Virus record (IMG/VR): IMGVR_UViG_3300025728_000009
Span: 1 to 64,000 of that record
Direction: 5' to 3' (one strand)
DNA length: 64,000 nucleotides
Origin: a virus
Below, piece after piece: positions 325 to 35,835 of this stretch. The notes below the pieces were generated by a model, which was not told where the DNA came from, searched no databases, and was given only the letters and a program-made list of their open reading frames with translations. Within the stretch, counting starts at the first letter, position 1, and the number at the start of each line of letters is the position of its first letter. Both the position numbers and the translations under genes were made by a program.

Positions 325-554
325 CAGTTATTATTCGTATTGAGGTAAAATAGTCTTATACATAGTAAAGTCTGTTTCTGTTAAGCTTTCAAAGGCCCAT
401 TCATTACGAAACACTTCAATACTATCTTCCAAATATTCTACTTCAATATCACATACACAATAATTATTAATACGCCCACATTGTGAGCAAAAGCAAATCT
501 CGCCCATAATGTGGACTCCGTTAGTTGTTATTTCAAGTTGTTAGTAAACCACAG

Positions 555-16272: not shown

Positions 16273-16906
16273 GCCTAGAATATCTGAGCAAGTATACCCT
16301 GTAAGCCTTGATTTTACTGGAGCTACCGGAGCAGTACTTAACAGATAATTTGTGGCACGTCACTGCCCCTATAGCTTTTGAGAAATATCGTACACGATTG
16401 ATTAGTCCACTAACCTTTAGCGCACAAGCTATTAGCGCAACCGACATTATCTGATCGATGTCCTATGCTGGTATTCCAAATGGTATTCCAAGCCAATAAC
16501 CCTACTAGACAATCTCCTTTAATAACAAGCACTTACCTCTCCGGTTCAACTTCCCACTGATCAACTGAACCGAGTGTCTAGGTGATGTAGCTCGATAGCC
16601 ACCTTGTCAAGACCACCTATTAGACTACATGTACAGGGCTGGAGAGTGTAGTTGACGTGCTGTGTCAAGGGATTATTGGGTGATAGATAGTGTAAAGGAA
16701 TCGTTACGGTGTGGGAAGTGGGTGACAAGAAGGCTTGTGCTTAGCCATCAGAGATGGCTTCGCATATTGATAGTGGTTAGAAAGTAAACCAAAGAGTGTA
16801 GTTAGTGTAGTCATTAAGACTAGATTGGGCAAGGCTTTGCAGCTAATTAATACTATCAACAGAAAGGATAGTAGAAGTGGGTTATATTAATCTTGTTAAT
16901 AGACTA
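16273..16906. other. Non-coding convergence region; candidate genome terminus/DTR or packaging region
   Basis: No credible ORF between two convergent terminators; short direct repeats and IHF-like motifs. Confidence 0.45.
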
Positions 16907-16925
16907 AGCCCCGCATCGCGGGGCT
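16907..16925 (-). terminator. GC-rich hairpin ending the - strand early block
   Basis: AGCCCCGC-ATC-GCGGGGCT. Confidence 0.65.
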
Positions 16926-17357
16926 ATAAATTAAACCTGCTAGAATGTGTTAGCTCAAACTCTCCGACCACTTAGCCCAATCTCTTTAAACATGCTAGTA
17001 GCTCTCTTTAGGTGCCACTCTGACAGGTTAAAGGCATACTTTACATCTTTGTCATACCCGTTAGGGTATCCCTTGGAGTCAACACTAGACACATATTGAA
17101 GGTCAAAGCTACCGGACATCAGTTTGAATTCACGTTGTACAAACATACTCTTACACTCCCATATCTTGTTGAAGAAGAATGCAATCACCGTATGCTTCTA
17201 CGATGTCTTGGAAGGCAGCTTGTGCGCTTACTGCTACTACTTTGTAGTCTTTACCAGATACGCCGTTGTCGAAGCTAACCATCAGGGTGAAAGTCTTGTA
17301 AGTGTTGGTAGTCATTTTCGTATTCCTTGTGTTTGGTTGTTTGCTTCTGATGTGATA

Positions 17358-32000: not shown

Positions 32001-33053
32001 AGTGTTGACTCTAGCATTGTGTTCATTTATTCAACTCCCCAATCTGTTCATTAATCCGTGTAATAGTCCATTCAGCACTTCTCAAATCTTCATGTGCTCG
32101 CTGAAGTTGTCCTTCAAGTTTCTTCAATACTGCTGTCTTACTCACATCACTCCCTTTAAGCTTAGCCCACTTCTTTGTACACTGATACCCTACAAACACA
32201 ACACCCTCATAATCATCTTTAGCGTATTCATGCACAAATTCGTAATCATTCAGATTGCAGATGAACTCTAAGTCGAATGACTCCGCATTCACATATTTCG
32301 AATATTCACGAGCCAAGCCTTCGTGTGTGAAGATGTTTGTGTCTTCTTTTCCATCCTTGAAAGGCCAATAGTTGTATGTGTCGATTAGAACTATGTCACC
32401 GTGTCTGTCTGTACGAGCTACCGCACGTCTGTCTCTGCACCAATACGGATCTGATGATGGACCAAGGTTAGGTTTCCAAGTGTATTGGAAGTAATCGCCG
32501 TCTTTGATCTGTGTCATTTCAAACTCCTAAGCCAATTAATTTTACTCTCTTCAGTCTCACCATTCAATTCAGTCCAGACATTGACAATCTCTTCAGTTCT
32601 CATGTCACAGAAATCTTTTGGTGGTGACATAATTAGAGTCTTATCTGTCCAATTGAGAATACCACCTTCATAGCGATCTTGCCAATAAAACATTTTACCT
32701 TCGCTGTAATCAGCTATACCGTGACAATGATAACCATCCATGCTTAGGTAAGTTAGATTAGGATAGAGTTTATTAAGAACAAGGAAAGCTAGCCATTGAG
32801 GTTTATCATCGCTTGGAAATAGTGATTGTTCTACAAAGTGATAGGCTAGATCGCTCATTGTTTAATTCCTGCAATTTTGAATTCCACATTCTCAGCCACA
32901 GCCTTAAACCTGTCAAGCACTGACATAAATTGATACCCTCCAGCTTTGCTCCACACGAGGACAACAGCATTTCCTAGATGTTTGCGTAAAACGTAGGGTT
33001 CGAAGTTTTCAATTGAGTACATTTAGTTTTCCTCTGTGTTTTCTGTTGCTTGA

Positions 33054-33087
33054 ATTTTAGACAAAAGAAAAGGGCCTGTCAAGGCCC
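33054..33087 (-). promoter_or_regulatory. Fused terminator/promoter TTGACA-17-TAAAAT
   Basis: Minus strand GGGCC-TTGACA-GGCCC-TTTTCTTTT. Confidence 0.85.
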
Positions 33088-33091
33088 AATA

Positions 33092-34309
33092 TCACGCAAG
33101 GTTGAAAATTTCTTTAATCTTAGGCTTTTCAAGCACCTCCAAGCTCATGCACTCAAACATCCCACCCTTAAACGGCACCAAAGGGTTGTAGTGAAACTCC
33201 CTGAATTCCTTGTGTAGTTCGGCTTCCATCTCTAAGACTGAAAGATGTTTGTCTTGCACTGTTGACAGGATTTCAACATCGTAGTACCTTCCTATCGACC
33301 ACATCCTTTCCCTCATATTGAAGGATCTACCAATCTTGATAAAAGATTCCTCTTTATTATACAAGTTTATGAGGTATAGATTGTCATCTTCGTCTGCACG
33401 ACCTTCGTATTCACCATACCCGTTATTTACGGCTGAGGATTTATATCTGCAAGACCCACCACAACCCCTACCTCTCAGGAAGTTGTTAATGGACGTGGAG
33501 TTTTCATGCCCTTCTGCACACAACCAATCAAACTTACTTGTCTGCCTGATATCATCAGTGTTGAAACCAATAAATGTAAAGCCTTGTGCAGTTACAAGGT
33601 TATTCATCTTAAGTTCATATTGTGCTGAAGTTAAAGGTGGATTATCTTTACATCGACAAGGTAGATTACCAGCCTTAAGGCTTGCATATGAGGCATTAAA
33701 AACACCATTGCAAAGACCAGCCTTTGTATACTCATCTTCTTTACAAATAGGACAGCTAACAAACCATCTTTCATACCTACCAGTGGAACCGGGCACAGGA
33801 TCTCTTTCAAACGTCGTACCGCTAACAAAGGAGCCTGTAGATAAAAACAAATCAATATAGTGTTCTATAGGTTTTACTTTGTTTTTAGATATGAGTCCAT
33901 CAAGACCAACACACCTTTTATTGTCATCTGAGCCGCCTAAGAATGAATTTATCCTCGGAAGAGTTACTACATCATTAGTTCTTAAGTCTACAGCCTTGAT
34001 CTTAGTATTAATCTTACCGTTATATTCCCCATCCCAACCTATGAATTTATAATCCCTCTTAATGCACTCCCGTATTACCAATATCTTATTTTGTTCTTCT
34101 GTTAGGTACGGAGTTCTGGCACAAAGACAAGAACATGATCCTTTACTTAGGCTGTGTGCATGAGAGGTAATTGATCCTAGTGGGAATAGTTCAGTATCTA
34201 AAGAGCACTTACTACAAGAGACAATCCACTTATCTTTCCCTATCTTACTAACTAATGTCATTATTGAATCTCTTACTTCAAACTGATCACCTTCATTGCG
34301 TACTGTCAT
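33092..34309 (-). CDS. Zn-ribbon-repeat protein with C-terminal GIY-YIG-like (T5orf172/MUG113) nuclease domain
   Basis: Two internal repeats W.VSC..C...L..G...C.C...LT..Q...F.G; C.EGH...GRGC; C-terminal LYLI...FIKIGRS...R...E.ELH...E. Confidence 0.75.
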   Translation of the reverse strand: MTVRNEGDQFEVRDSIMTLVSKIGKDKWIVSCSKCSLDTELFPLGSITSHAHSLSKGSCSCLCARTPYLTEEQNKILVIRECIKRDYKFIGWDGEYNGKINTKIKAVDLRTNDVVTLPRINSFLGGSDDNKRCVGLDGLISKNKVKPIEHYIDLFLSTGSFVSGTTFERDPVPGSTGRYERWFVSCPICKEDEYTKAGLCNGVFNASYASLKAGNLPCRCKDNPPLTSAQYELKMNNLVTAQGFTFIGFNTDDIRQTSKFDWLCAEGHENSTSINNFLRGRGCGGSCRYKSSAVNNGYGEYEGRADEDDNLYLINLYNKEESFIKIGRSFNMRERMWSIGRYYDVEILSTVQDKHLSVLEMEAELHKEFREFHYNPLVPFKGGMFECMSLEVLEKPKIKEIFNLA

Positions 34310-34371
34310 ACTTATTCTTTAATTCTCTTATGTATTTAGTTATTATTTATATTAGATTTATATTATTCAAC

Positions 34372-34820
34372 TGAGTTTAGATAACTCCAAGCGAGATTAC
34401 CCCTACCCATAGCCATAAGAGAAACAATATTCTCCCATAAGACTTAGGTAGGGGTCACGCTTGAAATTATCCTCGCTCTTTCCTGTGAAGCAGCTTTACG
34501 CTGTATTCAACTTGAGATGAGAAAAATAGTCTTTCGACTCTACTAATATGCACAGGTACATTTAGTAGCCAAGGAAGGTCTTTAATAAGATTACCTTCTC
34601 GAATCACTTTTATAGGCTCTTACAGCCCCGCTAACAAGACCTGATTCTTTCGACTAGTCTTTGCTATGTGTTAGCTCCCCGGTTAGCTTTAAGCTCTGGC
34701 TGCCCGTTGCAGTTGTGTCCGCCACCAGAACCGATGACATTCTAATGTGCTGTCGCTTAGAAGAAGGTCATGTATAAATATTACGCCTTTATTTCCTCAA
34801 TTGCAACCTTTCTGACATGA
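34372..34820 (-). ncRNA. Candidate ~450-nt highly structured RNA (unassigned family)
   Basis: ORF-free; at least 8 consecutive hairpins, GAAA tetraloops, 92-nt terminal hairpin whose irregular pairs are G-U only on the - strand. Confidence 0.65.
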
Positions 34821-35835
34821 TATGTTTTTATAGCAAATCAAGAAAGCGATAACCTAGAGGAATACCTAATCTTCCCCCTCCAACACCCTCAACACCTCTT
34901 CAAGATCCTCCCTACTCAGCCACAGAGGATGCTCATCATTAGTGTGATAGATGATAATTGCATTACCTACCTTGTCCCAATCTGTACCGTTGTCTGTGTT
35001 CATTGCATATCCTGCCAAATCTTCTTCAAATGTTTCTTCTTCACATCAGGGAATGCTTGGATAATGTCCTCAAGAAAAACCCTGTGAAAAGACTTAAAGT
35101 GTAATTCAGCTACAAACTGTTCCACTTCTTCAGTTAACGCATCAAATTTCTCTTGTTTCATTTCACTCTCCGAATATTAGCCCACTGTTCAGCACCAAAC
35201 TGATCACGCTTAAACTCACCAGATATCTCGCCCTCAAAGGTAATGTCAAGCTTCATGTTTGTTCGTACTGACTTCTTGTAAACAGATTGAAAGGTTGTCC
35301 CTACAGATGCATAATCTGATACCCAAGGACTGCTTTCTTCACGAATCTCGGACATGTTGATTGGCTCAACCGCAAAATCTTCTGGCAAGCTTTCAATCCA
35401 AGCGATAAATTCTTTCTTGTTCATCACTCTTCTCCCTTCCAAATCACATTAAACCTCGGACAAACATCAGACAGCTTCCTCACATACGTATCATAATCCA
35501 TAAAATTCCCTACGATAAAGAAAATCCCTTGGGAGTTCATCACTACCATTTGATTCTCCCCAAGCTTAAGTTTCTCTCCAGAAGAGGTGTCAATAATTTT
35601 AAATTTCTTTTTCATTCTTTACTCTCCACAAATACACCTTGTCGACTAGGTTTACTAGACAGAGAACGATAATTCTCATCGATAGCAACCATGAACTGTC
35701 CACCTTCCATGTAAAAGCCATCGTCAAGGGTTTCAATCTCCCAAGTCAACCCTTCGAACTTCCAATCCATTTCTACCCCAACATCTGGTACGAATTTGTA
35801 AGTCATGATTTTGTCTCCTCAATTAATGTAGGCCA

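Follow-up and report, generated by a model that had tools for sequence, protein, structure and literature searches.

The stretch of DNA analyzed here, called the window in the following, comprises the first 64 kb of the 91,285-bp virus record IMGVR_UViG_3300025728_000009 from IMG/VR. The primase/helicase of the phage has 79% identity to that of Pseudomonas phage vB_PsaM_M1 (Ounavirinae) and 74% identity to that of Pseudaeromonas phage KLEP7, and the phage can be classed as Ounavirinae-like, not T4-like. A leftward (minus-strand) block of small early genes contains a gap from 34310 to 34865 that is devoid of open reading frames (ORFs) on the minus strand and is flanked by an ORF of 50 amino acids (aa) ending at 34866 and an ORF of 405 aa starting at 34309. 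The gap harbors a large structured RNA, which was named RNA-A and has its core at 34735-34365 on the minus strand. The name RNA-B is used for a different conserved RNA, which was found in sister phages. The predicted order of the RNA-A cassette is private promoter, leader hairpin, RNA, AT-rich tail, gene for a nuclease of the GIY-YIG superfamily, and PeSL-like terminator/promoter (Table 1).

Homologues of RNA-A were recovered by exact-pattern scans of IMG/VR. The metagenomic contig L006 is 92.5% identical to the window over 34748-34333 (416 nt), and the contigs L007, L008, and L009 are 78-81% identical over 34735-34306. Together with the window, these contigs form the comparison set of five sequences, four of which are distinct. 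Matches to 17-mer patterns in L004, L005, L010, and L011 were due to chance (coding or unalignable). Degenerate core patterns, two-motif patterns, and helix-A patterns yielded nothing beyond the same four contigs and L041. A metagenome scan returned L038 alone, and this is contig L006 again; two scans of genome collections yielded no homologue of RNA-A.

The minus-strand RNA has a predicted folding energy of -159.2 kcal/mol, compared with -128.1 for shuffled sequences (z -5.39), and none of 100 shuffles was as good. The plus strand reached only z -2.69. RNAalifold predicted 131 pairs for the five sequences, 24 of them with compensatory changes. The curated structure contains 102 pairs, and 98.6% of the cells are paired across the five sequences. 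In 21 of these 102 pairs both sides had changed in a compensatory manner, a number that was not equalled by any of 500 shuffles. As a control, the partners were slid by 1-3 columns, and the pairing fell to 35-47%. G-U predominates at 17 of the 102 pairs, where the plus strand would have A-C mismatches; therefore, RNA-A was assigned to the minus strand. Taken together, RNA-A is a genuine folded minus-strand RNA of about 440 bases, and its body of about 370 nt contains more than 100 base pairs. A first-pass annotation of the locus had proposed a multi-hairpin RNA, favored on the minus strand by its G-U pairs, and the alignment of the homologues with its covariation has confirmed both proposals. 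An explanation of RNA-A as a coding sequence was rejected, as an internal ORF of 46 aa (34467-34607) is not conserved: of the homologues, only the near-identical L006 retains it, and indels disrupt it in L007-L009.

RNA-A is composed of two domains that differ in their conservation. The 5' domain (helices A-D, 167 nt) has 94% identity per column across lineages that are otherwise about 20% divergent, and the 3' domain (helices E-H) varies through compensatory change. The pairs of junction B are kept, yet almost invariant; one A-U has become A-C in L006, and the small GCUA hairpin of this junction is thus uncertain. Helix H has 10 compensatory pairs over three segments. Nearly all hairpins listed in the first-pass annotation were present at the positions given in Table 1, i.e., GCUAAC...GUUAGC, GGGCU-GUAAG-AGCCU, GAAGG...CCUUC, CUACUAA...UUAGUAG, AGUC-GAAA-GACU, CAGC-GUAAA-GCUG, and, at exactly the predicted place, the 92-nt hairpin. 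The exception was a GGUU...AACC closing stem enclosing an AGCU-UAA-AGCU hairpin, in place of which the homologues fit the register GGUUCUGGU/GCCAGAGCU of helix A, with 6 compensatory pairs. The extent had been given as 34315-34820; the element itself stood, and the 5' end turned out to be larger than flagged, because the leader hairpin and the promoter have to be added. These two features and the link to homing-endonuclease genes had been overlooked.

Table 1. Features of the RNA-A cassette of the window and location of RNA-B in related contigs
Feature	Position	Strand	Description
Promoter P1	34778-34806	minus	Predicted; -35 TTGCAA (34806-34801), 17-nt spacer, -10 TAATAT (34783-34778)
Leader hairpin	34734-34771	minus	Covarying stem, conserved loop (CUAAGCGA..CA.AUU), then AUC, then RNA body
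Helix A	34692-34732	minus	GGUUCUGGU/GCCAGAGCU; invariant basal G-U, distal CAACGG loop; 6 of 11 pairs compensatory
Three-way junction B	34630-34687	minus	Closing stem GCUAAC/GUUAGC, hairpin GCUA-ACACA-UAGC, hairpin AAGACU..GAAA..GGUCUU; near-invariant core
Helix C	34614-34628	minus	GGGCU-GUAAG-RGCCU; U-A to U-G in homologues, rest invariant
Joining segment and helix D	34569-34607	minus	GAAGG...CCUUC; flanking GUGAUUCGA and CUUGG with local or long-range (motif 1) pairing
Helix E	34540-34568	minus	CUACUAAAUGUAC..GUGCAUAUUAGUAG; 4 compensatory pairs
Helix F	34528-34539	minus	AGUC-GAAA-GACU; GNRA tetraloop only in window and L006; 1 compensatory pair
Motif 1	34505-34516	minus	CUCAAGUUGAAU; invariant in 5 of 5 sequences; candidate 3' strand of long-range helices
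Helix G	34491-34503	minus	CAGC-GUAAA-GCUG; different hairpin (CGUA-GCGA-UACG) at this place in L007-L009
Helix H (92-nt hairpin)	34380-34471	minus	Internal loop CCUAAG/UAUGG (34448-34443 and within 34412-34403)
Motif 2	34365-34380	minus	CUAAACUCAGUUGAAU; invariant in all five, near-duplicate of motif 1, ends RNA body
A/T-rich tail	34310-34364	minus	Runs into ribosome-binding site and ATG at 34309
Homing-endonuclease-type gene, 405 aa	33092-34309	minus	Four CapR zinc-ribbon repeats and T5orf172 domain (GIY-YIG superfamily)
PeSL-like terminator/promoter	33054-33087	minus	GGGCC-TTGACA-GGCCC hairpin, T-run, then TAAAAT; 3' cassette boundary
RNA-B	L015 5287-5645 (same in L017-L019); L041 1420-1780	minus	Same promoter/leader-to-terminator slot as RNA-A

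Two further features of the fold were seen. First, as suggested by a re-anchored alignment, GUGAUUCGA and CUUGG could undergo long-range pairing with the invariant CUCAAGUUGAAUAC of motif 1. The local lower stem of helix D is in competition with this alternative, of which 12 of 13 pairs are retained throughout the five sequences; one U-A has become C-G and one G-U has become A-U. The sequence CUCA(A)GUUGAAU is present twice in RNA-A, in motifs 1 and 2, and is invariant in the five homologues. Either copy can pair with one and the same segment upstream, GAUUCGA...CUUGG, and a conformational switch is thus possible. Second, the GAAA loop of helix F and the CCUAAG/UAUGG loop of helix H may form a tertiary contact of the tetraloop-receptor type. 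This contact was suggested because the window and L006 have both elements, and L007-L009 have neither. In the latter, the loop of helix F is replaced or extended, together with the loss of the internal loop, which has become a continuous helix. In comparison to the canonical 11-nt tetraloop receptor, CCUAAG and UAUGG have a one-G offset from the lower helix register, and the loop is therefore termed receptor-like, not canonical.

RNA-A appears to be a new family: neither Rfam nor the sequence collections searched contained a match, and all five copies are metagenomic. Rfam gave no family at the gathering threshold for the whole window, and none at E<=10 for RNA-A and its relatives. The Rfam covariance models of GOLLD, ROOL, HEARO, OLE, and raiA had no match to RNA-A, and according to ARAGORN it is neither a tRNA nor a tmRNA. 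A blastn search of INPHARED with RNA-A yielded either no match or chance matches of 30-40 nt in jumbo phages. The covariance model R1, which represents the 5' domain of RNA-A, found no distant copy in 26 loci, and RNA-B was not detected with it. The models of bacterial RNase P RNA (RF00010/RF00011) gave no match at E<=10 when the 436 nt alone were searched; the local words GUAAGAGC and AUCAGG of RNA-A may resemble RNase P RNA. The proposal of the first-pass annotation that a new class of large phage non-coding RNA had been found is well in line with the conserved, covarying structure, and the novelty stands after the comparison with the Rfam families, the group I and group II introns included. 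In another part of the window, a second ORF-free gap of about 500 nt (16448-16954) has a plus-strand fold with z -1.37, which is no better than that of shuffles; it terminates in a GC-rich terminator-like hairpin and has no Rfam match.

The 5' end of the cassette is formed by P1 and the leader hairpin. P1 has 8 of 12 consensus matches and lies under the threshold of the promoter scanner; we infer that it is used, with a transcription start near 34771. The motif ATCATGTSARAAAGSTTGYA upstream of P1 was found only before RNA-A/RNA-B cassettes (window, L007, L008, L015, and L041) among the loci examined. In L007 and L008 the promoter reads TTGTAT-17-TATACT with an extended -10 TG. The leader hairpin has the same fold in every homologue, with a different stem sequence each time (z -0.7 to -3.4), and it is common to RNA-A and RNA-B cassettes. 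At the other end of the RNA body, motif 2 as DNA reads TTGAAT-17-AATAAT and resembles a weak promoter site, and CUAAACUC from this motif also terminates RNA-B. A T4-type late promoter TATAAATA in the tail was considered and rejected, as the motif is not enriched in the window (4 found versus 3.1 expected). In addition, CUCANGUUGAAU as a phage-wide motif was not borne out. The homology between the window and L006 ends at 34333, about 25 nt short of the ATG.

The ORFs that follow RNA-A are predicted to encode free-standing homing endonucleases that belong to the GIY-YIG superfamily. The 405-aa ORF of the window matched Pfam CapR (1.1e-34), T5orf172 (8e-4; 20.3 bits and thus barely above the cut-off of 20), and PHROG 681, 'endonuclease' (2.2e-65). 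Proteins with CapR/T5orf172 are homing endonucleases of ICP1-type phages (PMC8096241; bioRxiv 10.1101/2023.03.23.533998). The protein is 34-37% identical to endonucleases of Vibrio phages, and in these genomes up to 6-7 copies are present, which would be typical of an actively spreading homing-endonuclease family. A search of IMG/VR for loci related to the 405-aa nuclease yielded none. The ORF of L006 encodes a classic GIY-YIG homing endonuclease of 257 aa (GIY-YIG 1.5e-10), which has no similarity to the 405-aa ORF. L007-L009 have an ORF of 193 aa with the motif GIY...YIG...R...E...N and GIY-YIG look-alikes in the ESM Atlas at 0.91-0.94. The AlphaFold single-sequence model of this protein had a pLDDT (predicted local distance difference test) of 36, and the GIY-YIG-like assignment is thus based on the motif and the ESM Atlas. 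Accordingly, the nuclease gene has been exchanged behind one and the same RNA: RNA-A is 92.5% identical between the window and L006, while the downstream ORFs (405-aa CapR+T5orf172 versus 257-aa GIY-YIG) are unrelated.

The 3' boundary of the cassette is sharp. The PeSL-like element, in which the -35 TTGACA lies within the loop of a GC-hairpin, was found 3' of the nuclease ORF in L006, L007, L015, L018, L019, and L041, and as a variant in L008. It is 100% identical in sister phages with different cassettes. PeSL elements mediate module shuffling (PMC2839356, PMC4122927). Also here, cassettes that differ in their ORF have kept the 3' boundary; at the 5' boundary there is no PeSL.

Relatives of the phage were examined for RNA-A. 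Nhmmer did not find RNA-A in any of 26 IMG/VR loci with the same primase/helicase (61-96% aa identity), for which up to 10 kb on each side were covered and which include one complete record with terminal repeats. Four of the 26 (L015 and L017-L019) are syntenic with the window and share the promoter and the leader (34732-35003, 88%) as well as the terminator (33052-33087, 100%). Between these flanks they carry the unrelated non-coding RNA-B of about 360 nt and an ORF of 324 aa of the CapR/T5orf172 type, which is only 26% identical to the 405-aa ORF (in L015: CapR 5e-16, weak MUG113/T5orf172). RNA-B is about 97% identical between L015 and L041, compared with 82.8% for the whole cassette including the nuclease gene. 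It contains CCUAAG/UAUGG and a long-range helix of 12 bp, in which one U-U mismatch in one of the two contigs corresponds to an A-U pair in the other. The folding energy of RNA-B alone is not significant (z -1.26), and therefore the case for RNA-B is based on its conservation and this mismatch-to-pair change. The strand AUCUAUCUUUC of RNA-B can pair either with the upstream AAGAUAGAU or with the ribosome-binding region AAGAGAUAGAAUG. L041 is a mosaic (1779-1857 and about 340-365, minus strand) of the leader, helix A of RNA-A, a small hairpin, and RNA-B; in this contig helix A stands alone before RNA-B and is 96% identical. A direct repeat of 13 nt, CAGCUUGGAAAGA, flanks the RNA-B/nuclease/terminator cassette in L041 and could be a recombination or insertion scar.

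The distribution of RNA-A also bears on the proposal of the first-pass annotation that the locus might be an origin of replication, i.e., that RNA-A is a primer like ColE1 RNA II, the G-rich 3' segment of which hybridizes to form an R-loop while the adjacent A/T tract unwinds. RNA-A indeed resembles ColE1 RNA II, as a promoter-driven structured RNA with a G-rich 3' segment beside an A/T-rich tract. The claim of an almost pure A/T tract at 34315-34370 was correct (87.5% A+T versus 59% for the whole window), and the distances are short, about 1.2 kb to the divergent early region (near 35.99 kb) and about 2.8 kb to the primase/helicase gene. However, the reading fails because RNA-A was not found in the 26 loci of relatives with the same primase/helicase, within up to 10 kb on each side, and because there are no iterons around RNA-A. 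The syntenic sisters carry the unrelated RNA-B, so that RNA-A is dispensable in close relatives. In contrast to the primer, the G-rich run is the paired 3' strand of a covarying hairpin inside the RNA. The A/T tract is the translation-initiation region of the nuclease gene, and it is unstructured (z +2.4, less folded than shuffles). The cumulative GC-skew minimum is located elsewhere, at the strand switch around 35.7-35.85 kb and away from RNA-A. The origin reading is thus extremely improbable, and a false lead has been removed for this phage group.

Another explanation would be that RNA-A is a functional partner of the nuclease in an RNA-nuclease module, or else a ribozyme, self-processing from an intron-like element that is mobilized together with the endonuclease. 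A GIY-YIG-superfamily nuclease always follows the RNA, and the left boundary of the RNA body (...UCG, then the body) is precise in different contexts (L015 versus L041). In addition, the G-U at the 5' base of helix A is invariant, ribozymes typically contain GNRA loops and loops of the receptor-like kind, and the genome hosts group I introns. These are two ORF-less introns on the minus strand outside the window (about 83987-84232 and 85456-85667), and they served as positive control for the Rfam search, in which they scored 65.7 and 67.0 bits with Intron_gpI (RF00028; E ~1e-15). The same search gave no match at E<=10 for RNA-A, RNA-A', and RNA-B; a standard group I core would have been detected, because the genome's own introns score so strongly. 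The models for group II introns, HDV-like (hepatitis delta virus-like) ribozymes, RNase P, and HEARO were likewise silent on all three RNAs. An intron would also be expected to have flanking exons, which were not present: the upstream ORF ends 95 nt ahead of the leader, at 34866, with the promoter between them, and downstream a complete nuclease ORF and a terminator follow. When the P1-P9 topology of group I introns and the HDV-like topology were threaded by hand, the basal G-U and the P3-then-P1 order fitted, and partners for P2, P1.1, and P7 were not found, so that the threading appears to have failed.

An RNA-guided nuclease of the OMEGA type (IscB/TnpB) was rejected, as the effectors are three kinds of GIY-YIG-superfamily protein and neither a guide-like match nor a match to HEARO was found. 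RNA-A has no variable guide segment, and its complementarity, whether to phages related to this one or to the remaining sequence of the window, did not exceed chance. One RNA is combined with three unrelated nuclease architectures, and one nuclease type (CapR+T5orf172) with two unrelated RNAs. The lack of guide-like complementarity and the occurrence of nuclease relatives elsewhere without the RNA disfavor a partnership, too: in Vibrio and Pseudomonas phages such relatives abut genes for DNA polymerase, thymidylate synthase, or ribonucleotide reductase, with gaps of 0-50 nt and no RNA. Taken together, a partner RNA or ribozyme is distinctly unlikely.

The explanation that we favor, and in which we have about even confidence, is that RNA-A is a stand-alone accessory structured RNA gene, and that the nuclease genes behind it are hitch-hikers that use RNA-A as anchor and cargo. 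Transcription would start from the private sigma-70-type promoter near 34771 and yield the leader hairpin followed by the compact RNA of about 370 nt, which would be released from the nuclease mRNA or act independently of it. RNA-A might then act in trans early in infection, most likely by binding or decoying a factor of the host or the phage. The analysis shows the fold, its strand and conservation, the limits of the cassette, and the turnover of the nucleases, whereas use of the promoter, processing of the RNA, and action in trans are inferred. A role that is accessory or serves counter-defence fits the patchy distribution, the location in a plastic early region, and the alternative allele RNA-B. 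The GIY-YIG-superfamily nucleases would be selfish homing endonucleases lodged between the RNA and its terminator, with one replacing another from lineage to lineage. For them, the conserved RNA gene would be a recognition or recombination anchor and would be carried as cargo, in parallel to SegB in the tRNA/stable-RNA cluster of T-even phages. The GIY-YIG endonuclease SegB among the tRNA genes of T4 drives their preferred inheritance (PMC2330249), and SegB amplifies anti-defence RNA genes and is itself frequently tRNA-associated (PMC13096335). The most economical history would start from an ancestral promoter-RNA-terminator gene, in which homing endonucleases settled later and were swapped through the conserved flanks.

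Several results weigh against this explanation. No terminator was found between RNA-A and the nuclease ORF, and thus RNA-A is a 5' untranslated region in the primary transcript. A GIY-YIG-superfamily nuclease is present in each of the four cassette types (three with RNA-A, one with RNA-B), and a copy lacking the nuclease was not found. This universal neighbor could indicate a functional coupling: as sensors or partners, RNA-A and RNA-B would gate or assist homing by whichever nuclease follows them, for example as a giant riboswitch-like switch based on the duplicated CUCA(A)GUUGAAU, or as an RNA cofactor; we regard this as unlikely. A riboswitch-like leader would likewise combine a conserved 5' domain with a variable 3' domain and have a switching motif in two copies (here motifs 1 and 2). 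In addition, the explanation is based on five sequences (four distinct), all of them metagenomic and known from their sequence alone.

The same results are the basis of the main rival, in which RNA-A acts in cis as a giant leader or switch, either riboswitch-like or sensing a protein or a state, and sets the expression, the stability, or the timing of the nuclease behind it; it would thus be a reusable 'regulated landing pad'. GAUUCGA/CUUGG would pair alternately with the internal motif 1 or with motif 2 just upstream of the ORF, and these pairings would be mutually exclusive. In all four cassette types the nuclease ORF starts 55-70 nt after motif 2, and the RNA runs into it without a terminator. 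The invariant 5' domain and the covarying 3' domain resemble an aptamer and an expression platform, respectively, and RNA-B has its own alternative pairing that includes the ribosome-binding region. Endonuclease genes of T-even phages, e.g., that of I-TevI, are under the control of RNA structure. However, the A/U tail that holds the ribosome-binding site and the AUG is unstructured in the three RNA-A cassettes (z -0.1 to +2.4), and neither a mask nor a terminator was found there. The most conserved part is located farthest from the ORF, and about 440 nt with the signature of a tertiary contact far exceed the known leaders of homing endonuclease genes. The relatives of the nucleases in other places have no such leader, and two unrelated RNA bodies for one job would be unparsimonious. 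A cis-acting leader is therefore a serious candidate, to which we assign a clearly lower probability than even.

If RNA-A is a stand-alone gene with hitch-hiking nucleases, a non-coding RNA gene would play the part of the conserved 'host gene' amid a turnover of different homing endonucleases. The second, unrelated RNA in the same slot suggests that RNA-based accessory functions, possibly in counter-defence, exist in phage early regions. If, on the other hand, the RNA-nuclease pairing were functional, it would be a new RNA-nuclease module in phages. Few large RNAs are known to have a conserved tertiary architecture, and those understood so far are mostly ribozymes, riboswitches, or protein scaffolds. 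With its strong covariation, its own predicted promoter, and the sharp limits of its cassette, RNA-A can be directly synthesized and tested.

RNA-A can be compared with several known systems. With the mobile group I introns that contain GIY-YIG ORFs (T4 td/I-TevI, nrdD/I-TevII) it shares a GNRA/receptor-like RNA that is joined to a GIY-YIG gene with sharp boundaries. In contrast to these introns, it has no Intron_gpI match, interrupts no gene, has no exons, is preceded by its own predicted promoter, and its P3/P7 core could not be threaded. GOLLD, ROOL (PMC12286853), OLE, and raiA are, like RNA-A, large non-coding RNAs of intricate fold with many GNRA loops and long-range contacts, and phages often carry GOLLD and ROOL. 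RNA-A differs from these RNAs: it has no Rfam match, is smaller (370-440 nt), shares a cassette that runs from promoter to terminator with a nuclease gene, and has come from only five metagenomic contigs. The PeSL cassettes of T4-type phages also have a stem-loop terminator with the -35 in the loop and the -10 downstream, and the content between the motifs is swapped (PMC2839356, PMC4122927). In the cassette described here, the 5' boundary is formed by the private promoter and the leader hairpin, a large RNA gene is among what is shuffled, and the phage is Ounavirinae-like. Lastly, in the SegB cluster of T4/T6, which lies in the early region of a lytic myovirus, a free-standing GIY-YIG homing endonuclease gene directly adjoins conserved genes for structured RNAs; these genes are co-inherited or amplified with SegB, and the RNAs can be anti-defence cargo (PMC2330249, PMC13096335). 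In contrast to the tRNAs of that cluster, RNA-A is one multi-domain molecule of about 440 nt, three nuclease families share the slot behind it, and their homing is predicted from sequence.

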